A DNA stretch of 64,000 nucleotides from a virus (Duplodnaviria > Heunggongvirae > Uroviricota > Caudoviricetes). A program made the position numbers and the translations under genes. The notes beneath the pieces were generated by a model, which was given only the letters and a program-made list of their open reading frames with translations, ran no database searches and had not been told where the DNA came from. Below are positions 6,140-60,564 of the stretch, one piece after another. Each line of letters starts with the position of its first letter. The first letter of the stretch is position 1. The stretch lies in the IMG/VR virus record IMGVR_UViG_3300010885_065725. The stretch is one strand, 5' to 3'.

Positions 6140-7849
6140 CTATTTTTTAAACATTGCAAATAAATTTGTTGTTTTCTTTGATTCATATCCTATAGAATTT
6201 AAAATTTTGGTCAATGGAGCAATGAATGCTTTTTCAAATTGCATATTATAATCTATATATTTTTCTAATTTAAATTCTTCTGGTAGTTCATCAGGAAATG
6301 CAATAATATTTTGCTGTAATGGATTAGGTTCTCTCATATAACAATATTTTACCTTGTCTCCGTCCACAATGTCGCTGTATATATGGGCAATTTTAAGTTT
6401 TTTTACTGTTCTATTGAAATTTATTGCTCCTCTTACCTGTGCAGGACATCTTTTCTTTACTCCATATTCAGAATAGTATTTCATCATGTTATCTATTCCT
6501 CTTGGAAATGAGATTTCGTGTACAGGTCGATTCATAAAATCTTTCTTTACGTCTTCAATATATTTTATGACTGTATCATTATCAGATGTCAGAATCAATT
6601 CAATAGAATTCTTCAGAGATTCTCTTATACATTCTGGAGTAGAAGATCGAACAACTTCTAGTCCCATTATCTTAATGTAATATGGGTCATACCATATGCC
6701 CTCAGAATTGTGTACCAACATGGCATACTTTTTCTTTGCAGTCCAAAAAGAAGTAGAAGATATTGCTTCTCTCTTGAAATGTAATTTATGTTCGTATCCA
6801 TTAGTATATTCGTACAATTCTGTATAACATTTATCGAACACCTTAGAAATTTTCTTTTCACATACTGCATCAAGAAATTCTACTTTTTCTTTTGTGGTAG
6901 CATCAGATTTAAATTTAGAAATAAATTCATTCATGTCCAGATATATCGAATCAGTATCTTCGTATACTACCCAATCTTTTGTGACAGGAGTATCAAATAA
7001 ATTATTCATATAATTATTAATATACTTTTCGCCATACTTCAATGCCATCTGCCCTGATGCCGTGATCGCAAGAGCAAGACGCAGATCAAACATCTTGAAA
7101 TATACATTAGAAATACCTCCATAGAGAGAATTCAATGTCAATTTCAATGCCTGTTCAAAATTGCTGTACATTGCTATCTCATTATCAATTTGTTTCCTTT
7201 CTTCTGCAGAATATTCTCCTACTATTCGCTTCAGGTCTAACATTTTCCCTTTATATGTCTTCCTGTCAGATAACATTTTCTTACACAGTATAGGCAAAAA
7301 TCCTTCTACATTCTTGTCGAACATTGCACCATTTGCCGCAATACAAATGTTCTCTTCTTTCAAATATTCCAGATCATATTCTTTTTCGACAAAAGAAGCG
7401 ATAGAATTATTTTCTTCGCTCATACCAACAAATGTTTCAGGAGAAATATTATATTGACAAATTAAACTAGGATAGAGAGCCGTTGCATCAAAAGATACTA
7501 TCCATTTTTTTAAGCCATGCGTAGGTTCTTTTACATATGCCCCTGCAAATTTTTCTGCCTCTACCTTTTGTATAGAAAATGGAGGAATTGTATTACTTTC
7601 TAGTAAATGATTGTTAATGATTGCTTCCCATGTCTTCACAGGAGAATAACAGTCACCATAGTTTATTTTTGCAATATATGCAATCTTTAGTGCAATCTGA
7701 ATGAGTGTAAGTTTTTCTTCTAGTCTCTTCACAAGATTAGTGTCTTGTATATTATATAAGACAAATTTGTTAAACGCTCTTTGTTTCAGGTCTTTATCTA
7801 ATGCACCATATTCCGCAAGAAGTTCACTATCACTCATTTCTTCAAACAT
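6140..7849 (-). CDS. 43: DNA polymerase, C-terminal polymerase-domain cistron (43B)
   Basis: Family B polymerase motifs: KxxxNSLYGG (KLTLNSLYGGISNVY) and YEDTDSIYL (YGDTDS motif C). The N-terminus aligns to T4 gp43 at about residue 370 (YNIQDTNLVKRLEEK..PVKTWEAIINN vs T4 YNIIDVESVQAIDKI..PIKTWDAIIFN). Length 569 aa; together with the 328-aa 43A this gives 897 aa, close to T4 gp43 at 898 aa. Confidence 0.8.
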   Translation of the reverse strand: MFEEMSDSELLAEYGALDKDLKQRAFNKFVLYNIQDTNLVKRLEEKLTLIQIALKIAYIAKINYGDCYSPVKTWEAIINNHLLESNTIPPFSIQKVEAEKFAGAYVKEPTHGLKKWIVSFDATALYPSLICQYNISPETFVGMSEENNSIASFVEKEYDLEYLKEENICIAANGAMFDKNVEGFLPILCKKMLSDRKTYKGKMLDLKRIVGEYSAEERKQIDNEIAMYSNFEQALKLTLNSLYGGISNVYFKMFDLRLALAITASGQMALKYGEKYINNYMNNLFDTPVTKDWVVYEDTDSIYLDMNEFISKFKSDATTKEKVEFLDAVCEKKISKVFDKCYTELYEYTNGYEHKLHFKREAISSTSFWTAKKKYAMLVHNSEGIWYDPYYIKIMGLEVVRSSTPECIRESLKNSIELILTSDNDTVIKYIEDVKKDFMNRPVHEISFPRGIDNMMKYYSEYGVKKRCPAQVRGAINFNRTVKKLKIAHIYSDIVDGDKVKYCYMREPNPLQQNIIAFPDELPEEFKLEKYIDYNMQFEKAFIAPLTKILNSIGYESKKTTNLFAMFKK

Positions 7850-8001
7850 AAAATCTCCAATAATAAATTTATACTATACTACAAAACATATTAAAATAAA
7901 TAGTAAACTTTTTAATTTTTATAAATAATATTAAAACAAAAAAATGCCAATCACGGGTTTCTGACACCCTATTGGCTCTAATACTATAACGGAGTATCAG
8001 C

Positions 8002-8757
8002 ATGAATATTTATACGACTATCATACCAACCTATCTTTACATCAAAAGGCATTCAGTTACCAAGTTAAAATACTTCGGTAAAACTTCCTTAGATGATCCA
8101 ATAAAATATCTAGGCTCAGGAACCTATTGGACAAAGCATATTAACAAACACGGCAAACAATTCGTTGATACTATTTGGTTATCTGATTTATATACTGATA
8201 TATCTATCTCCGAACACGCTCTTCATTTTTCGCACGAAAATGATATAGTTAAATCAGACGAGTGGGCTAATCTAAAACTAGAAAATGGTTTAGATGGCGG
8301 AGCATATTTACCATCACAACCTACAGTAGAAAGAATTTGTTATTGTGGAAATATTTTTCAAACTAAACACTCTAGCAAAAAGGCTACTTGTGGGTATTCC
8401 TGCTCAAATACCATTACTGCTAATAAAAGAATACCAATCGCATTAAATAATAATATCTATATATTTAAAAACCTATTCAATAACGAAATTATACACTCTA
8501 CTATTTTTGATTTTAAAAAATATTCTTTTCTTTCTGCAGCAAATATAAATCATTTAGTACATGGAAATCATAAAATAATAAAATATTGGACTATTTTTGA
8601 TACTGTAGCAAATAAATTTAGAAATGAAATTCCAAATAAATCTCCCCCAAAACCATTAACTAAAATTTGCTCCCATTGCAATAAAGAAATATCATATGCA
8701 AATTATGTTAGGTGGCATGGGGATAATTGCAAAATGATATCATTCATTATGAATTAA
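8002..8757 (+). mobile_element. free-standing GIY-YIG homing endonuclease gene (Seg-like)
   Basis: N-terminal GIY-YIG-type motifs PTYLYIKRHSVTKLKYFGKT...YLGSGTYW. Opposite strand to the polymerase cistrons it separates. GGAG ribosome-binding site upstream. Its 3' end overlaps the 43A stop. Confidence 0.75.
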
Positions 8758-9726
8758 ACCTCTCAATAAAAGCTCTTTTTTTATCAAAGTTCTCCTAAGC
8801 CCCAGTTCATCTATTTCTTGATGATCTGGGCGGATTTTTTCTATATCATATTCACCAGAATAAAATTCTTTGAATGTCTTATAGGGGTTTTTTAATTTGT
8901 TTTGTTTTAATTCATAATATCCAATCGTATCTAATTTATAATTTTCTCTTGTAATAAAAGTAAACTTCTTATATAAATTTAAGTAGTCAAGATGTTGCAC
9001 TCCATATATGTCATATGTGTTTACTATTTTTACACTCTTATCTTTTTTCTTTGTTCTTATTTCTCTTGCGCTCACTACTCCAAAAGGAGAAAGTCTTTTT
9101 GCATATTCTACTCCGAGAATCTCAGAAATTCTATTGTAGATATATGGAATATCAAATGATTCTGTGTTCCATCCGGAAACAATATCAGGATAATGAGAAG
9201 ACCAGTATTGTACGAATTTACGCAGAAGAACTATTTCTCCGTCACATTCTACATAATTAATGGATTCGTCCCCTGTATACGGCTTATATCCAAATGTTAT
9301 TATTCCATTCTTACTGGAACACAAAGTAATAAGAGTAATTTTTTCTTTTGCCGTGTCCGGATGTGGAAAACAATCTCCTACTTCTGTCTCAATATCAATA
9401 AAGCACATATCAATATCATTAATATTATACTTTACTTCTTCTTTATATTCTTCTGCAAGGAACTGATAGCTATAGTTACCATTCCCGTATAACTTCATGT
9501 TCTCTATATCTTTGTGTCGCTCAATAAAGCTCTTACATTCCTTTATGGTAACAAAACTATGCTCTACTAAAGGTTCTTTATATATCGTACAATGAGTAGC
9601 ATCTAGTTGAGATTTTGTGTATATTTTTGGAGAGAATTTAAACTTACTTCTGGTTCTTTCTCCATTTTCAATATACGAATAAAATAATGTGTCGCCAATC
9701 TGTCTAATATCAGTATAAAATTTCAT
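8740..9726 (-). CDS. 43: DNA polymerase, N-terminal 3'-5' exonuclease-domain cistron (43A)
   Basis: Exo I motif FIDIETE, and SGWNTESFDIPYIYNR, RLSPFGVV, LDYLNLYKKFTF align with T4 gp43 SGWNIEGFDVPYIMNR, RFSPIGRV, LDYLDLYKKFAF. Ends where 43B begins in the T4 alignment. Confidence 0.8.
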   Translation of the reverse strand: MKFYTDIRQIGDTLFYSYIENGERTRSKFKFSPKIYTKSQLDATHCTIYKEPLVEHSFVTIKECKSFIERHKDIENMKLYGNGNYSYQFLAEEYKEEVKYNINDIDMCFIDIETEVGDCFPHPDTAKEKITLITLCSSKNGIITFGYKPYTGDESINYVECDGEIVLLRKFVQYWSSHYPDIVSGWNTESFDIPYIYNRISEILGVEYAKRLSPFGVVSAREIRTKKKDKSVKIVNTYDIYGVQHLDYLNLYKKFTFITRENYKLDTIGYYELKQNKLKNPYKTFKEFYSGEYDIEKIRPDHQEIDELGLRRTLIKKELLLRGLIHNE

Positions 9727-13789: not shown

Positions 13790-14130
13790 ATCTCCGCTAC
13801 GCAGAAATATGAAATCCCCTAATTAAAAATGGTCGTCTATTATAATCCGGACGATACGGATACTTGTTTGTACCATTGGTACATCAATTGGCTGGGGATG
13901 ATGAAGTCGAATCACCGATGACTGGATCAAAACCAGTTGCCTTACCGCTTGGCTAATCCCCAATAAATTTATCAGTATATTTTTAAAAATATACTGATAT
14001 TCGTAGTGTCACTACGATTCACCCAAATACTTTTAAGAATATACTGATTCGTATTAGCACTACGATTCGACACATTTTACCTTGCCCTTGCGGTCATGCT
14101 CCGCAGCTCAGTATATTCTTAATATAATTG
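13790..14130. ncRNA. structured non-coding region (candidate small RNAs, as in T4 tRNA-region stable RNAs)
   Basis: About 340 nt without ORFs, GC-richer than surroundings. Multiple hairpins (GGGGAT..ATCCCC twice, GTACCATTGGTAC palindrome). Two tandem ~35-nt repeats each carrying TCGTAGTG-CACTACGA-type stems (approximately 13985-14075). Directly abuts the tRNA genes. Confidence 0.3.
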
Positions 14131-14200
14131 GGAACCTTGTGGGAATCGAACCCACGTTATTCCCCACAGAGCGTCCTAACCACTAGACGATAAGAATAAA
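14131..14200 (-). pseudogene. degenerate tRNA-like element
   Basis: Minus strand has a canonical T-arm GTGGG-TTCGATT-CCCAC and a tRNA-Glu/Asp-like D-arm TCGTCTAGTGGTTAGGAC. The anticodon arm is about 6 nt short and no complementary acceptor stem is found. Confidence 0.25.
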
Positions 14201-14201
14201 C

Positions 14202-14277
14202 TGGTGAGCCGAGAGGAATTTGAATCCCCACTCATCGACTTATGAGGTCGCTGCATTAACCATTATGCTATCGGCTC
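14202..14277 (-). tRNA. tRNA-Met/Ile (anticodon CAU)
   Basis: Hand-folded 76-nt cloverleaf on the minus strand: acceptor GAGCCGA/TCGGCTC, D-arm GCAT-AATGGTTA-ATGC, anticodon arm GCGAC-CTCATAA-GTCGA (one mismatch at 27:43), T-arm GGGGA-TTCAAAT-TCCTC (one G:U), encoded CCA. Confidence 0.6.
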
Positions 14278-51284: not shown

Positions 51285-53051
51285 TTAATCCCAGTTTCCT
51301 AATTGTTTTAAATAATTTTCATAATCTTGGTTTCCAGTTAGCCATACATCAGTTGGTGTAATATCGATAATATCATCGTCATCTATTCCATTTAATATGA
51401 ATCCAAAAGGAGTAAGTTCTTGATCTATTCTCATTTCTTGTTGCGAATACATCAATTTTCGTACATCATCATCAGTAAAATCTTTAAAAAATTGTGATGT
51501 TGCAAGAAAAGAAAATAAAATAAGACACATAACAAGATCATCATGTGTTCCTTGTTCTGCCTGATACTTTCCTTTATATATAGTAAACGTAGAAAGTTCT
51601 GCAACAATATCAAAATCATTTACCATCAATTTATCATTTTCTAATAACTGTTTAAGGTTCGCACAACCTATTCTTCTTGTTTTCACTGTAGTACGAATAC
51701 CTGCCATTCCTTGTTTTCCCCATTCTGATATGATATCTCTGTCCGTATATATCACATGCTCATATTCTAAATCTTGATTCAAAATATCTGCTACTTGTCC
51801 TCCAATATCATTAATTTCTATTAATACTTTTGCCTCATTATAATCTTTGCATACTTTCAATATAATATTTGGATATAACATAGGAGGAATAGAATTACTT
51901 TTGTATTTTGCTACTACTTGATATGGCATTATTGTCACATCAAAAACTAACATTGCAGAATAATCTATACCTTGTCCTCTTGATACGTCTACTGTTGCAA
52001 TATATACATGATTTTGTTCTGGAGCAAAATATATATCCAACTCATCTTTAATATGAATTGCATTCAGATATACTATATTCTTTAGGCAATGTGCAGAAAT
52101 TAATGTATTGGAACTTCCTTGGAAATCTGCTTCCATTTCTTGCATGAATTTTATTTCACCAAGAACTTTTCTTTGATCGTCTGCCCATGCCTTGGTTCTT
52201 CCAGGAACTTGATCCCATGTGACTTTCAATACTTTAAAACCATTTCTTCCTTCCAGACCATCCATATACATTTTATAAAAATGATTTAATCCTAATGGAG
52301 TAGAAGAAATAAATATTTTTGTACTTTCTCCAGAAGATATTGTAGGATATACAGAAGTAAAGAAGTTTTCTGCAAGAGTATTGGAAACGAATGCGAATTC
52401 GTCAAGTACAATACAGTTCACTGCATATCCACGGATAGCAGAAGAAGAAGTAGATTCTGCCATGATAATAGAACCATTTTCTAATATCATTTTAGATTTA
52501 TTAAATTCTTGTACGCCCTGTTGCAGCCATATCGGAAGATTTTCGTATATGTCCTGACATTTGCGCATAATTTCGCGTGAAGTTGCGCCTCTGTTTGCGA
52601 GAATAGCAGATATTTTATTATCATTGAACAATGTGAACCATATAAGATAACATGACATTGTAAGAGTATTATGAGAAAGTATTTCATTAGAAAAAAATCT
52701 ATGATCTTCTGAATCAACAGAAATGTCATACATTTCTTCTTCTTGTTCAAAAATTTCTTTTGAAATTACTTTATATATCCCTCTGGATGTAACAAGAGAA
52801 GTGACATAACATATACAATCTTTTGCATAAATTTGGTTATATTCTGCATCAAATAAAATATGTGTATCTGCACATTCTAGAAAATATCCATTCTCTAATG
52901 TGATTTTATATTTTTGATATGGGATTGTTTTGTATATATGTGTAATTGGTTGCCATCCGGTATCCGTAGATATTTTCCAATCTGGTGGCAATTCTATAGA
53001 ATCTGTGAATTTTCTTTCTGATAAAGTTGATAATTGCATATAATATAACAT
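51285..53051 (-). CDS. 17: large terminase C-terminal fragment preceded by intein C-fragment (IntC-TerL_C)
   Basis: First 125 aa contain Hint blocks B (ENGYFLECADTHILF) and F/G (YDISVDSEDHRFFSNEILSHN). Then T-LTMSCYLIWFTLFN aligns to T4 gp17 GK|TTVVAIFLAHFVCFN, followed by Walker B (DEFAFV), LGLNHFY and the nuclease domain. An in-frame TGA lies immediately upstream of the ATG. Confidence 0.85.
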   Translation of the reverse strand: MLYYMQLSTLSERKFTDSIELPPDWKISTDTGWQPITHIYKTIPYQKYKITLENGYFLECADTHILFDAEYNQIYAKDCICYVTSLVTSRGIYKVISKEIFEQEEEMYDISVDSEDHRFFSNEILSHNTLTMSCYLIWFTLFNDNKISAILANRGATSREIMRKCQDIYENLPIWLQQGVQEFNKSKMILENGSIIMAESTSSSAIRGYAVNCIVLDEFAFVSNTLAENFFTSVYPTISSGESTKIFISSTPLGLNHFYKMYMDGLEGRNGFKVLKVTWDQVPGRTKAWADDQRKVLGEIKFMQEMEADFQGSSNTLISAHCLKNIVYLNAIHIKDELDIYFAPEQNHVYIATVDVSRGQGIDYSAMLVFDVTIMPYQVVAKYKSNSIPPMLYPNIILKVCKDYNEAKVLIEINDIGGQVADILNQDLEYEHVIYTDRDIISEWGKQGMAGIRTTVKTRRIGCANLKQLLENDKLMVNDFDIVAELSTFTIYKGKYQAEQGTHDDLVMCLILFSFLATSQFFKDFTDDDVRKLMYSQQEMRIDQELTPFGFILNGIDDDDIIDITPTDVWLTGNQDYENYLKQLGNWD

Positions 53052-53087
53052 TCATAATAATAGTTATCTATATTTATCAATAATATA

Positions 53088-53120
53088 TAAAATAAAGGGC
53101 AACCCCTATTGGTTGCCCTC
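53088..53120 (-). terminator. rho-independent terminator upstream of the IntC-TerL_C cistron
   Basis: GGGCAACC-cctatt-GGTTGCCC hairpin. On the minus strand it is followed by TTTATTTT, between the 83-aa ORF and the IntC-TerL_C start. Confidence 0.55.
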
Positions 53121-53133
53121 CTATAAGAAATTT

Positions 53134-53385
53134 TTAGAACACTACTGGTACGTCTACCATAGGTTCACTAGATTTCTCTGTTTTTGTTTTATAATATTTC
53201 TTTCCCATTCTAAATGCATCACTTAGATATACATCTAACATTGTTGCAAAATGATCTTTTGCATCAACAAATGCTTTAGTTTGTTCTTCTGGTGTAGAAT
53301 ATACAGTAATACATGGTGTCATTACTATATTGAAAAGAGCATCACATTCTTCCGGAGATGCCGTAACATTAGATCTTATTTTCAT
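53134..53385 (-). CDS. hypothetical protein (intervening between terminase halves)
   Basis: 83-aa ORF in a different frame from TerL_C. No Walker A or terminase similarity. Confidence 0.3.
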   Translation of the reverse strand: MKIRSNVTASPEECDALFNIVMTPCITVYSTPEEQTKAFVDAKDHFATMLDVYLSDAFRMGKKYYKTKTEKSSEPMVDVPVVF

Positions 53386-53764
53386 AAGTACTCCTGTATT
53401 CTGTTATAAATTTCTTGGTAATAGTTTTTCCTTCATCAGTTGCCATAAAATTAGCTACCCCTTTTATGATATCATCCTGCATGAGCCATTTCTGCTCTTC
53501 TCCAGTCAGGGCTAAGTTTATAGCTTCTTCTAAAGTATATTGTTTTTCTTGTAGCGAAGACGCAATAATAGAAGACCTCCCTATATCTACACGTTCTGCA
53601 TCAATTATTTCTTTTACCATACTACGCAAATCAGATAGATTCACCGTAACATTTTCCTGTTTAATAGGAATTACGTCTATAGGATTGTTGTTTACTTGTG
53701 GAACTACATTTGCCTTTAATGCTGCAAGTTGTAATTCAAGACTTGATAATAAAGAAGTCGTCAT
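53369..53764 (-). CDS. hypothetical protein (candidate small terminase by position only)
   Basis: 131-aa ORF upstream of the large terminase C-fragment. No convincing similarity to T4 gp16 by eye. Confidence 0.2.
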   Translation of the reverse strand: MTTSLLSSLELQLAALKANVVPQVNNNPIDVIPIKQENVTVNLSDLRSMVKEIIDAERVDIGRSSIIASSLQEKQYTLEEAINLALTGEEQKWLMQDDIIKGVANFMATDEGKTITKKFITEYRSTYENKI

Positions 53765-53824
53765 ATATTATTTCTCTGTTTTAAGAATCAATAAACCATA
53801 CCGTTTCATCTTAGGACGATACTC

Positions 53825-54742
53825 TCAAGATCGTACATTAGTTGCAGTTTGTCCAGAACCTATCATAGTTCCAAGATTCACTGTACTTTGTGTATTATGT
53901 TGAATAGCTTGGGCAACAGTACCTAACAAACCAATGATTTGTTGGTTGGCAGTAGCTTGAGCTTGAGCAACGGCAGTTTGATTAACATTAGTAATTACAC
54001 TAACATTACCTGAGTCAACGATACCACGAGTTTGTGTATGTCTATGGTCATCCAAAGCTACTGCTAATTGACGTTGTAAATCAAGTTCTCTAGCATTAGG
54101 AATAGATGCAGCCAAAGCAGCAATAGAAGCTCTAGTTTTCTCACCATCATTAGCAATAGCAAGAGAAGTAGCATAAGTGCTTTGAGCAATGTTAGTATTA
54201 ACAACACCAAAACCAGCAGCAGTTGCAGCAGATAATGTACCAACAGACCCATTAACTAAATCACCAGTTTCATGTACTTCATTGATTACATCTTTGGCGA
54301 CATTGTTTATACTAGCAAGAATACCTGATTGACCTTGCAAGTTGGCAATTTCAGCATTTAATGTAGCAATTTGAGCAGCATTAGATTGAGCTTGCAAAGC
54401 AGATTGTAATTGACCTTCTGCTTTCCAGATTTCTCCTTCAACATTACCTAAAGATTGTGAATTTAATGCACCAGTGACGATGTTTTGTACATCACCAGTA
54501 GTTAATGCGTTAGCAGCAGCTACAGTAGCAGCAGTACCATCTAACCCATTTCCGCCCAATATACCTGAACGACCTAATAATAGACCAAGTAGAACACCTC
54601 CACCTAATCCGTCTTGACCTTGATTACCACCTAAAATGTTACCCATACTGCCTCCTAATATTGAAGATAAATCCGCGTTTTTAAGAATATTATTTAAGTC
54701 GGTTGGAAGTTCGACTGCCATAAGTTTTCTCCTTATTGCCAT
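53825..54742 (-). CDS. Gly/Ala/Gln/Asn-rich coiled-coil protein (structural?)
   Basis: 305 aa with N-terminal glycine-rich repeats (GGSMGNILGGNQGQDGLGGG..GILGGNGLDG) then an Ala/Gln-rich helical region. Lies between the two terminase cistrons. Confidence 0.3.
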   Translation of the reverse strand: MAIRRKLMAVELPTDLNNILKNADLSSILGGSMGNILGGNQGQDGLGGGVLLGLLLGRSGILGGNGLDGTAATVAAANALTTGDVQNIVTGALNSQSLGNVEGEIWKAEGQLQSALQAQSNAAQIATLNAEIANLQGQSGILASINNVAKDVINEVHETGDLVNGSVGTLSAATAAGFGVVNTNIAQSTYATSLAIANDGEKTRASIAALAASIPNARELDLQRQLAVALDDHRHTQTRGIVDSGNVSVITNVNQTAVAQAQATANQQIIGLLGTVAQAIQHNTQSTVNLGTMIGSGQTATNVRS

Positions 54743-54992
54743 AATTTCCTAGACATGCTAGGTCATTTTTGTTGCTTAGTGCAACAAAACTGAATTTACT
54801 AACCGCGACTATCTAGCTTGAATAGATCTCGTTGTCGTGTTAGTAACATTGGCAATACATACGGATAAATCTTCATAATATATTAGTGGTATTTCGCAAA
54901 ATACCTAAAACAATACGTCTGCGTAGCCAATGGTAAAACTTTGTTCACACATTTCATGTGAATCAAATATGTATTTATATATTTAAAATCTT

Positions 54993-55421
54993 CTAAAGTT
55001 CTGGTTTGAAATATTCTATATATTTTTGCCAAAGAAAAAAATGTCCTATTGACATTTCATATTCTTTTTCATCATTATCTTTCACTCTGATTGTAGTATC
55101 ATGACAGACACATTTTCCTACCTGTCGTGCAGTATTTAATAATACCTTTCTATTTTCATGCATTGCCCTAATAAATTCTATTTGGTAATCATACATATTA
55201 AATGGTACTAAACCTCTGTCTACATGTACCACTTTTACATAATTAGTAATAAAATATACTGGATCTTCTTTACATTTCATATATTCTTCAATTTGTTCTT
55301 TTGTATATTGAAGATGTACATTTGTTCCCTTTATCCTTGGATTATTTCTGTATGATTTAATCTTTGGTACAGGATTCAATACTTTTACTACAGGTATCGA
55401 TTTACTTGATTTTTTTATCAT
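54993..55421 (-). CDS. 17: large terminase N-terminal fragment fused to intein N-fragment (TerL_N-IntN)
   Basis: EQIEEYMKCKEDPVYFITNYVKVVHVDRGLVPFNMYDYQIEFIRAMHENRKVLLNTARQVGK aligns with T4 gp17 [63 protein letters not shown]. Followed by CVCHDTTIRVKDNDEKEYEMSIGHFFLWQKYIEYFKPEL-stop (intein block A begins with Cys). Confidence 0.8.
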   Translation of the reverse strand: MIKKSSKSIPVVKVLNPVPKIKSYRNNPRIKGTNVHLQYTKEQIEEYMKCKEDPVYFITNYVKVVHVDRGLVPFNMYDYQIEFIRAMHENRKVLLNTARQVGKCVCHDTTIRVKDNDEKEYEMSIGHFFLWQKYIEYFKPEL

Positions 55422-58941: not shown

Positions 58942-59741
58942 CTCCCCAAACACAAAAACCATTAAGGAAATTTATGGCACGTAAACCTAAAATTGTGGAT
59001 AAACATTTTGAAGATATCTCACAATATAAAGTAGATAAAGAGATAAAGGAAAATCAACCCTCTAATAGACTTAAGATTAAGATAGAAGATCTAAAAACAT
59101 TAAAACCATTGACTAAAAATCAAAAGTTATTTTTTGATTCTTATGCAAATGGTGATGAAGCAATTATGTTATATGGTTCTGCTGGTACAGGTAAAACTAT
59201 AATCTCGATTTATAGAAGTTTAGAAACTGTACTTGATAAAGGTAATCCATATAGTAAACTCATTATTGTTAGACCTGCTGTTGCTAGTAGAAATCAGGGG
59301 TTTCTGCCTGGGGATGCTGCAGAAAAATTAGCAGTATTTTGTGAGGCATATATCAATATATGTTCTACATTATTTAATAGAAGCGATGCTTTTACTCGAT
59401 TAGTCGAACAAAACCATCTTGAAGTTGTTAGTTCTAGTTATCTTAGAGGGTGTACTTTTGACAATGCTATCATAATATTTGAAGAATTTCAGAATGAAAC
59501 GTGGGCAAATATACAAACTGTTATATCCAGATGTGGGAAAAATACTAAACTTATTTTAGCTGGTGATTTTAAACAATCAGATTTGAATCAAAGTAGAAAT
59601 GATCAAACTGGATTTAATGAATTGCTTAAAGTTGCTAAGATAATGGACGAATTTACTCTTATAGAATTTGATTCATCCGATATCGTTAGATCAAAGTTTG
59701 TTAAGAATTTTATTATTGCTTGTGAGAAATTGGATCTTTAA
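58935..59741 (+). CDS. phoH: PhoH-like ATPase
   Basis: LYGSAGTGKT Walker A, GFLPG, and IFEEFQNETW..LAGDFKQSDL match PhoH-family signature regions. T4-like phages commonly carry phoH. Confidence 0.7.
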   Translation: MVTPQTQKPLRKFMARKPKIVDKHFEDISQYKVDKEIKENQPSNRLKIKIEDLKTLKPLTKNQKLFFDSYANGDEAIMLYGSAGTGKTIISIYRSLETVLDKGNPYSKLIIVRPAVASRNQGFLPGDAAEKLAVFCEAYINICSTLFNRSDAFTRLVEQNHLEVVSSSYLRGCTFDNAIIIFEEFQNETWANIQTVISRCGKNTKLILAGDFKQSDLNQSRNDQTGFNELLKVAKIMDEFTLIEFDSSDIVRSKFVKNFIIACEKLDL

Positions 59742-60564
59742 TGCACACCCACCCACTGTGTGATTGCGTCTTATTATTTGCGATATTGCACATACTACTA
59801 TAATTGAGTGCATGGTCTATACAGAAATGTTTCAGACCATGTACTTTATATATGTCTCCAGTAGGAGAAGTTACTATATATGATTTTCTACTAGAAATGC
59901 CAATATTGATTTTTATTTCTTCTGATCTTTTTTTCCCTTTACCAGAAATAGACTGCTTTCTTTTTGTTTCTTCCGATCTTCTCAATCCTTTTGCATTACC
60001 TACCAGTTCCCCGGACAAATATCTATGATCTGTTTTATCTACATAATGTATTATCCCAGTGATATCTTTTGTAGTCACTTTATTTTTAGCAACACTAATC
60101 AATTCCCCTGACAAATATCTATGGTCTGTTTTATCTATTAGAAAATTATTCCCAATTTTATCTTTTACTGCAACTTTTCCTTTACCTCCATATCCCCCAC
60201 CACCATCTATTCCATTTTCCAATTTTAAATTAGCCCATTTATCAGATTTAACTATATCCCAATGTTCTGATATTAATATAGAAAATTCTATTAGAATTTT
60301 TTCATTTATAAACAAATCAGAAAGCCAAATAGTTTCAACAAACTGAGTACCATGTTTTTTTATATGTCTTGTCCAATATTTACCTGATCCTAAATATTTG
60401 TTTGGATCTTTCTTGGTAGTCTTTCCAAAGTATTTTAATCCTGTGACAGAGTGTTGTTTTATATAAAGATATGTAGGCTTTAAAACTTTATAAATAGATT
60501 TGCTGGGCATAATTGTTTCCTTAATGATTAATAGAATGTTTAGAATAGGTAGATGTTTCAGCAT
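59713..60564 (-). mobile_element. GIY-YIG homing endonuclease gene (paralog of 8002..8757)
   Basis: N-terminus PTYLYIKQHSVTGLKYFGKTTKKDPNKYLGSGKYWTRHIKKHGTQFVETIWLSDL is near-identical to the first homing endonuclease (PTYLYIKRHSVTKLKYFGKTSLDDPIKYLGSGTYWTKHINKHGKQFVDTIWLSDL). C-terminal repeats (IHYVDKTDHRYLSGEL twice) suggest DNA-binding modules. Convergent with phoH, overlapping it. Confidence 0.7.

Follow-up and report, generated by a model that had tools for sequence, protein, structure and literature searches.

Several naturally split inteins of phage origin have been described. In the arrangement called 'fractured genes', the halves of a split intein flank a free-standing homing-endonuclease gene; a 'Terminase' locus is included among these (Dassa et al. 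2009, PMC2677866). According to a 2026 paper, AceL-TerL and GOS-TerL are split at the S2 position, after helix α1, and VidaL and PolB16 at the S1 position (PMC13014065). The N-terminal intein fragments (IntN) of AceL-TerL and GOS-TerL are 25 and 37 amino acids (aa) long, and GOS-TerL uses Ser1 and Cys+1 (PMC11766414). The AceL/GOS-type inteins combine an IntN of 25-37 aa with a C-terminal fragment (IntC) of 104-122 aa, which carries all motifs save block A. Here we analyse the large terminase (TerL) locus of the virus record IMGVR_UViG_3300010885_065725 in a 64 kb window, that is, the whole stretch of DNA that was analysed, which is part of a T4-like phage genome and has 31.6% G+C. The best explanation of this locus, and a very likely one, is that TerL is made from two genes whose products need trans-splicing by a class-1 split intein.

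The two TerL open reading frames (ORFs), the N ORF at 54993..55421 and the C ORF at 51285..53051, are both on the minus strand at the coordinates first predicted for them. They consist of the following parts (↓ marks a splice junction in the sequences below):

55113..55421, minus strand: TerL N-extein, residues 1-103, ending ...ARQVGK, the first half of Walker A (PHROG and P-SSM4 alignment)
54996..55112, minus strand (TAG at 54993-54995): IntN, 39 aa, with Cys1/block A CVCHDTTIRV, β2 EYEMSIG, α1 HFFLWQKYIEYF and tail KPEL
52668..53051, minus strand: IntC, 128 aa (ATG at 53051) or 124 aa (ATG at 53039, MQLSTLSERKF...), with blocks B, F and G
51285..52667, minus strand: TerL C-extein, 460 aa and stop codon, TLTMSCYLIW..., with the remaining ATPase domain and the nuclease domain

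The N ORF codes for 142 aa: TerL residues 1-103 (...LLNTARQVGK; C-terminal letters of the extein ...KVLLNTARQVGK), 39 aa with the sequence CVCHDTTIRVKDNDEKEYEMSIGHFFLWQKYIEYFKPEL, and then the TAG. The C ORF codes for 588 aa, of which the first 128, counted from the first ATG, end in ...EILSHN (...YDISVDSEDHRFFSNEILSHN); TerL resumes at Thr+1 with TLTMSCYLIWFTLFN / TLTMSCYLIWFTLFNDNKISAILANRG and continues for 460 aa. Both ORFs are free of frameshifts and internal stops, and the spacing between them is 1,941 nucleotides (nt; 53052-54992). In the relative L004 the upstream ATG of IntC is out of frame and the second ATG alone is conserved; IntC therefore probably begins at 53039 and would be 124 aa long. 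The lengths originally predicted hold well, since the IntN of 39 aa is confirmed and an IntC of 125 aa is close to the 124-128 aa found.

Both ORFs are matched by PHROG TerL profiles, and at the junction the profile positions covered by one ORF adjoin those covered by the other. Residues 22-105 of the N ORF match PHROG 5989 TerL (E=4.9e-24), and the C ORF from residue 129 matches Pfam Terminase_6N (E=1.5e-10) and Terminase_6C (E=1.2e-10). In the TerL of Prochlorococcus phage P-SSM4, residues 8-89 (...PRQSGKST) align to the N ORF and residues 88-521 to the C ORF, the latter with 44% identity; the proposed alignment of both fragments to TerL is thus borne out. The joined exteins ARQVGKTLTMSCYLIWFTLFN align with P-SSM4 PRQSGKSTIVTAYLLWYVLFN, and Walker A (GK↓T) is restored; the insertion point is between the Lys and the Thr of the TerL P-loop (ARQVGK↓C...SHN↓TLT). 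The expected joined TerL has 563 aa, its junction reads ...VLLNTARQVGK-TLTMSCYLIWFTLFNDNK, and it shows the features of a T4-type large terminase, namely ATPase and nuclease domains and a complete Walker A. No second TerL-like sequence, and hence no alternative intact terminase, was found within the 64 kb window, although portal, sheath, tube and capsid genes are present there. Near-identical DNA to the window was not found among GenBank phages.

All positions needed for class-1 splicing are present: Cys1, block B (ADTHILF), block F, block G (ILSHN) and Thr+1. Block F of IntC reads YDISVDSEDHRFF (motif core DISVDSEDHRFF). The first intein residue is a Cys directly after the N-extein (...RQVGK↓CVCHD...), and the same is seen in the three split alleles compared, across which the catalytic positions are conserved, and in contiguous members of the family. 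In an alignment of 30 sequences, Cys1 is found in all 13 rows which include IntN, and the block-B His, the block-F Asp and His and the terminal His-Asn are invariant. The fused IntN and IntC, searched as a single sequence with phmmer, match the gp41-1 intein (E=9e-8) and CatC (E=0.016); the profile built from the 30-sequence family alignment matches VidaL (E=8e-13), gp41-1 (E=1e-10) and CatC (E=4e-8) among the solved inteins.

Concerning the fold, AlphaFold2 was given the fusion RQVGK-IntN-IntC-TLTMS with the 30-sequence family alignment and returned a HINT fold with a predicted local distance difference test (pLDDT) of 90.4 and a predicted template modelling score (pTM) of 0.85. Foldseek against the PDB gave inteins or BIL (HINT) domains for 50 of 50 among the matches listed, the best of these being VidaL (template modelling score, TM, 0.85) and gp41-1 (TM 0.80-0.84). 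In the model, IntN provides strands 12-16 and 22-26 and helix 27-39 (β1, β2, α1), and the remainder forms a β-rich body. The sole stretch of low confidence, at about 41-58, is the IntN tail and the IntC head, that is, the joint of the two fragments; the break therefore lies just after helix α1. According to the model, the intein is thus atypically split at the S2 position, with a short IntN which carries block A only and an IntC which carries blocks B, F and G. The two-ORF state is marked by the TAG after ...KPEL and, before IntC, by a TGA, a terminator and the conserved ATG. The in-frame TGA directly upstream of the C-fragment gene and the terminator hairpin before it were both foreseen in the original prediction, and both are found, the TGA immediately 5' of the first IntC ATG (53051) and the terminator at 53121..53094 (minus strand). 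A second intein was not found in the 64 kb window.

Among known inteins, the window intein can be assigned from its sequence to the Walker-A TerL allele, of which cultured Vi01-like phages carry a contiguous form. The Vi01-like TerL intein belongs to the same family, with 31-37% identity over IntC. In Salmonella phage Maynard, the TerL intein (annotated 'intein from Cys110-Asn268') occupies the same site, ARQSGK↓CVRGDT...FLSHN↓TTVVAAFLLW, but it is a cis-splicing mini-intein of 159 aa in a single ORF; where it has the α1-β3 linker, the window has a stop codon, 1.9 kb with other genes and a further start codon. A related intein in TerL is found in 309 phage records of GenBank (Vi01-like Ackermannviridae, Campylobacter CPt10, Delftia PhiW-14, Vibrio Kuja/VAP7), of which those other than Maynard were judged from annotation alone. 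The nearest solved structures, by both profile and fold, are VidaL (PDB 6VGV) and gp41-1 (6QAZ). VidaL is also atypically split, but after β2 (S1) and with an IntN of 16 aa (PMC13014065), and gp41-1, unlike the window intein, is canonically split and has a helicase host.

With AceL-TerL, GOS-TerL and Cat-TerL the window intein shares the T4-type TerL host, the natural split, the short IntN and long IntC, the break at S2, the origin from uncultured phage and the expected class-1 chemistry. It differs in its Cys1/Thr+1 pair at Walker A; CatC has a Cys at +1 after SH(A) in the alignment. In many TerLs among the matches there is an additional intein near Walker B, inserted at ...RG(G)SFN↓C...; the Cat consensus (6DSL_B) fits one of these second-site inteins at E=1.1e-10, compared with E=0.016 for the window intein. 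For the window intein, 6DSL stands behind gp41-1 in the single-sequence search, behind VidaL and gp41-1 in the profile search and at rank 42 in Foldseek; neither an insertion point with Cys+1 nor closeness to 6DSL, by which an allele of the AceL/GOS/Cat type would be recognised, is found in it. From the Cat-consensus matches and the Cys+1, we infer that the inteins AceL, GOS and Cat are located at the second TerL site, their insertion point being deduced here by comparison, and that the window intein is another allele which shares their split topology. The proposed AceL-TerL type is therefore retained as regards the S2 topology and replaced as regards the allele. By eye, multi-intein TerLs with a second or third intein at ...RG.S.N↓C... 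were also seen (P0021, P0024, P0025, P0030), as were C fragments which end in a second-site IntN continuing into a GIY-YIG endonuclease in the same ORF (P0022, P0037, P0039, P0049, P0060).

The family of the window intein is large. With IntC as the query, exhaustive HMMER searching gave 917 cluster representatives (50% clustering) at E<=1e-3 and 514 at E<=1e-10, compared with just 3 matches in a word-indexed protein search. Among the best 150 representatives, the intein ends in HN in 148 and is followed by Thr (102) or Ser (47) at +1 in 149; about 138 run on into a TerL motif. The ORF opens with IntC in 112 of these 150, which are thus split, and in 21 the intein is contiguous, its ORF including the upstream ...GK↓C... 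The contiguous members have a variable linker of about 20-60 aa at the exact break point of the split ones. In IMG/VR there are at least 521 related loci, and layouts were counted from the best 80 of these, 42 being TerL loci with both halves in reach. The split form is found in 36 of the 42 (27 with an insert of 0.9-2.05 kb and 9 with adjacent halves, 3 of which show endonuclease remnants) and the contiguous form in 6, one with an endonuclease in frame. The layout had been described as rare in the original prediction; the split form is abundant in metagenomes, and that description falls. The recurrence of the same architecture in hundreds of related sequences also argues that the layout is not due to chance. 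The IntN of the relatives is 34-66 aa long and has the same pattern as that of the window.

All 27 of the insert-bearing split TerL loci have in the gap a same-strand ORF of 246-428 aa, homologous to the ORFs of L008 and L006 and with a GIY-YIG and/or Vsr/PD-(D/E)xK-like domain. Of the latter two ORFs, that of L006 contains a GIY-YIG domain, and both have a C-terminus which resembles Vsr/PD-(D/E)xK at a sub-threshold score. These relatives fit exactly the fractured-gene arrangement (PMC2677866); the window differs from it in having three unrelated genes and a leader in the gap and no endonuclease. Nor is the intein family specific to TerL: in about 35 of the 80 best loci (L019-L096) the same IntC is inserted in the P-loop, GK↓(S/T), of a gp46/SbcC-like ATPase, where it opens its own ORF, and further hosts are a ClpX-like ATPase and a DnaB-like helicase (P0018, P0033, P0051, P0055 and P0058 are among the non-TerL cases).

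A third lineage (L006, 5303-7127, and L007), with an N fragment 65% identical to that of the window, has an opposite-strand GIY-YIG and Vsr-like endonuclease gene after TerL-N-IntN; in the L006 lineage the TerL C fragment is absent from the following 5 kb, and the halves may be dispersed in the genome. In L083 and P0094 the intein is contiguous and has an in-frame endonuclease inserted at S2, a form which may stand midway between contiguous and fractured genes. Certain cyanophage TerLs were also considered as intein-bearing, as their tblastn alignments seemed to begin inside the intein (query position 57); on inspection they are ordinary 550-aa proteins without an intein, and the apparent overlap is BLAST extension.

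Selection was assessed by comparing the window with L004. Synonymous sites are saturated (proportion of synonymous differences, pS, 0.6-0.87), and the proportion of nonsynonymous differences (pN) is 0.07 in the exteins (0.074 in the N-extein), 0.165 in IntC (pS 0.82) and 0.295 in IntN. Both intein fragments are thus under purifying selection, as pN is far below the saturated pS. The L004/L005 relative, with an N fragment 78% identical and proteins 78-88% identical, has the same five-gene order on the 24 contigs read. The N-fragment protein is also found on a JGI contig and a Logan contig, and the C-fragment protein on a second Logan contig. These contigs (JGI L009, Logan L010 and L103), which come from different assembly pipelines and whose samples were not compared, overlap the window at 100% identity and tile the region: gp26, gp51, TerL-N, leader and p305, and then p305, p131, p83, TerL-C, sheath and tube.

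The following pathway is proposed. Two precursors, TerL(1-103)-IntN (39 aa) and IntC (about 124 aa)-TerL (460 aa), would be made separately. Since its start codon is located 1 nt past the stop of the gp51-like gene, TerL-N-IntN may be translationally coupled to that gene; IntC-TerL-C would be expressed behind its own promoter-like motif. IntN (β1, β2, α1) would dock on the near-complete IntC and complete the HINT fold. An N-S acyl shift at Cys1 would then give a thioester, the N-extein would pass to the hydroxyl of Thr+1, and cyclisation of the terminal Asn of ...SHN would free the intein. A final O-N shift would yield the 563-aa TerL with an intact Walker A, ARQVGK-TLT.

The gap, with its three genes and conserved leader, is the most unusual part of the locus. 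Its content, three same-strand ORFs of 305, 131 and 83 aa and the elements around them, is as follows:

54743..54992, minus strand: non-coding leader between the TerL-N stop and p305, 250 nt, about 200 nt of it conserved and probably structured
54979..54972, minus strand: T4-type late-promoter motif TATAAATA, a sequence motif in the leader
53825..54742, minus strand: p305, cassette gene 1, with a Gly-rich hydrophobic N-terminus followed by a long α-helix in the prediction; its homologs form at least 155 clusters
53369..53764, minus strand: p131, cassette gene 2, which co-occurs with p305 in L004 and L011-L017; ratio of nonsynonymous to synonymous substitutions (dN/dS) 0.12 against L004
53134..53385, minus strand: p83, cassette gene 3, with a 17-nt overlap with p131; dN/dS 0.13 against L004
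53094..53121, minus strand: intrinsic terminator GGAGGGCAACC-AATAGG-GGTTGCCCTTT and T-run, with an 11-bp stem, which ends the cassette
53071..53078, minus strand: late-promoter-like motif GATAAATA, about 20-30 nt 5' of the IntC start, in the block TTGATAAATATA conserved in L004

No Pfam, PHROG or GenBank-phage (tblastn) matches were found for the three gap proteins. Also, 14 homing-endonuclease genes from related loci showed no similarity (E>=0.4) and no remnant when compared with the gap and with the whole window; apart from the window and L004, no locus was found whose gap is without such a gene. None of the at least 155 clusters of p305 homologs has a reliable functional name or a Pfam domain, and the AlphaFold2 model of p305 is of low confidence (pLDDT 66, pTM 0.24) and essentially one long helix (82-213). 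The p305 protein is not an endonuclease. The p305-p131-p83 module is widespread and also present outside TerL in other phages (L011-L017, L098-L102, L106-L108), with up to 71-86% identity, and it is therefore a portable cassette; its neighbours there are tail-fibre-like genes, a cell-wall hydrolase, a DarB-like giant protein and a response-regulator-like gene. The cassette either landed in a fractured TerL or replaced its endonuclease. The split is located where relatives have the free-standing homing-endonuclease gene, which is gone in the lineage of the window; since a cassette with its own leader and terminator is in place there, the split state is old and fixed.

The leader is 83% identical to that of L004 despite the saturated synonymous sites in the flanking genes. 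Its RNA folds better than all 200 shuffles (z=-3.3), and the two-sequence consensus has 62 predicted pairs, 3 of them compensatory and 1 broken; there was no match to Rfam. The stretch may represent a structured leader or a small RNA of a new kind. Exact-word scans of IMG/VR and of a metagenome collection for further copies of the leader gave none and did not recover the source contig either, which those collections probably lack. The leader is closed by a hairpin, CCTAG-N5-CTAGG (54750-54770, minus strand), about 25 nt 5' of the p305 start codon. The same hairpin is found 5' of p305 homologs in the unrelated contigs L012, L014 and L017, once as CCCGG/CCGGG (covariation), and it looks like a conserved 5' untranslated element of the cassette. 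Two pairs of the terminator stem have compensatory changes in L004. The promoters and other expression signals listed above are putative, being read from motifs and folds. The only Rfam match, to the MicX small RNA over the terminator (53082-53187, plus strand; 30.9 bits against a gathering score of 75), is sub-threshold and most likely due to chance.

Elsewhere in the window, the gp43-type DNA polymerase is also found in two ORFs (6140-9726, minus strand), one at 8740..9726 covering profile positions 7-307 and one at 6140..7849 covering positions 300-852. The halves are about 890 nt apart, with an opposite-strand ORF of 251 aa (8002-8757, plus strand) between them. In the polymerase gap there was no intron match at E<=1, and the broken ends have no intein motifs; gp43 appears to be a split gene without an intein. 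The 251-aa ORF resembles GIY-YIG proteins by eye alone and has no Pfam or PHROG match. A free-standing HNH-type homing-endonuclease-like gene (59713-60564, minus strand; PHROG 314, E=2e-11) overlaps the 3' end of an opposite-strand PhoH-like gene, and two tRNA genes, tRNA-Gln(TTG) and tRNA-Met(CAT), are found within 13889-14277 (minus strand).

Several points weigh against trans-splicing and have to be set beside the evidence for it. The splicing itself is deduced here from anatomy, catalytic residues, the fold model, conservation and recurrence. IntN is the least conserved part, with 54% identity to L004. The proposed intein-profile check gave a mixed outcome: IntN and IntC match the solved inteins gp41-1 and VidaL, while Pfam Intein_splicing (PF14890) stays below its curated threshold on IntC (E=4e-4; 20.6 bits against a cut-off of 35.8) and covers its last 35 aa. 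Concerning expression, the promoter calls depend on 8-nt motifs, and TATAAATA is found at 32 places in the window, where about 16 would be expected. Lastly, a complete TerL could be located outside the 64 kb window. The core of the original prediction, two TerL genes with a split intein at GK↓T, nevertheless stands, as the coordinates, catalytic residues, HINT model, selection and recurrence agree on it.

Four rival explanations share a small residue of probability. The intein fragments could act as a non-covalent dimerisation module, with the TerL pieces working unspliced as a two-subunit enzyme. The halves of split inteins bind one another tightly, and the phage seems tolerant of split enzymes, since gp43 is also divided without intein motifs. 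However, the cut is inside the P-loop (GK↓T), where an unspliced complex would keep about 165 intein residues in the nucleotide-binding loop, and residues which serve the chemistry only (Cys1, the terminal HN, T/S at +1, the block-B His) are retained in hundreds of diverged members, although a pure dimeriser needs none of them; we consider this improbable. It is slightly less probable still that TerL is decaying and non-functional, broken by foreign genes, with a working terminase outside the window or a defective phage. The window is part of a genome, and the gap genes are also found elsewhere in other phages; against this, the exteins and intein fragments are under strong purifying selection relative to the saturated sites of L004, the five-gene layout is kept on the 24 contigs of the L004 type, the ORFs have no frameshifts or internal stops and there is no second TerL in the 64 kb.

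Removal of the 1.9-kb insert from the RNA or the DNA, as an intron or an excising element, to leave a contiguous cis-splicing intein-TerL would agree with the structured appearance of the leader RNA and with the existence of contiguous versions, some with an in-frame endonuclease at the same point. Yet neither group I nor group II introns gave a match in the gap at E<=1, the gap boundaries have no direct repeats and there is no recombinase. Moreover, a stop ends IntN, IntC has its own conserved ATG, and the insert, which carries three conserved ORFs as well as its own promoter-like motif and a terminator with covariation, exists elsewhere as a free-standing cassette; removal is thus very improbable. 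An assembly artefact, whether a wrong join of contigs or strains or a chimeric insertion, might be suspected from the metagenomic source and from the break of the Logan assembly inside p305. Such an artefact is exceedingly improbable, as L009, L010 and L103 from different pipelines agree at 100% identity across the region and a relative with 78-88% identical proteins keeps the same gene order; the concern that the ORFs are in reality contiguous finds no support in the JGI and Logan contigs or in L004, all of which show the same layout.

A locus of this kind, an S2-type naturally split phage-terminase intein, is already known, and the window locus leaves the understanding of intein and terminase mechanism unchanged; what is distinctive is the cassette without an endonuclease and the conserved leader. 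One further and rather unlikely reading is that the gene is a 'domesticated' fractured gene, in which the endonuclease presumed to have broken it has been lost, the gap has come to hold a conserved late cassette of three genes behind a structured RNA leader, and trans-splicing is obligate and possibly regulatory in terminase maturation. If this were true, the N half would, for instance, be tied to the baseplate-hub genes and the C half to its own promoter, and active TerL would need both units to be on. The family supplies hundreds of natural S2-split variants with Cys1/Thr+1 chemistry and an IntN of 34-66 aa and, as matched contiguous relatives are included, is a ready-made series for studies of fragment association and extein dependence. 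In terms of phage biology, the gap of a fractured gene can serve as a landing site for unrelated cargo, and an essential packaging ATPase can remain split in its P-loop over long evolution, even after the selfish endonuclease has been lost.

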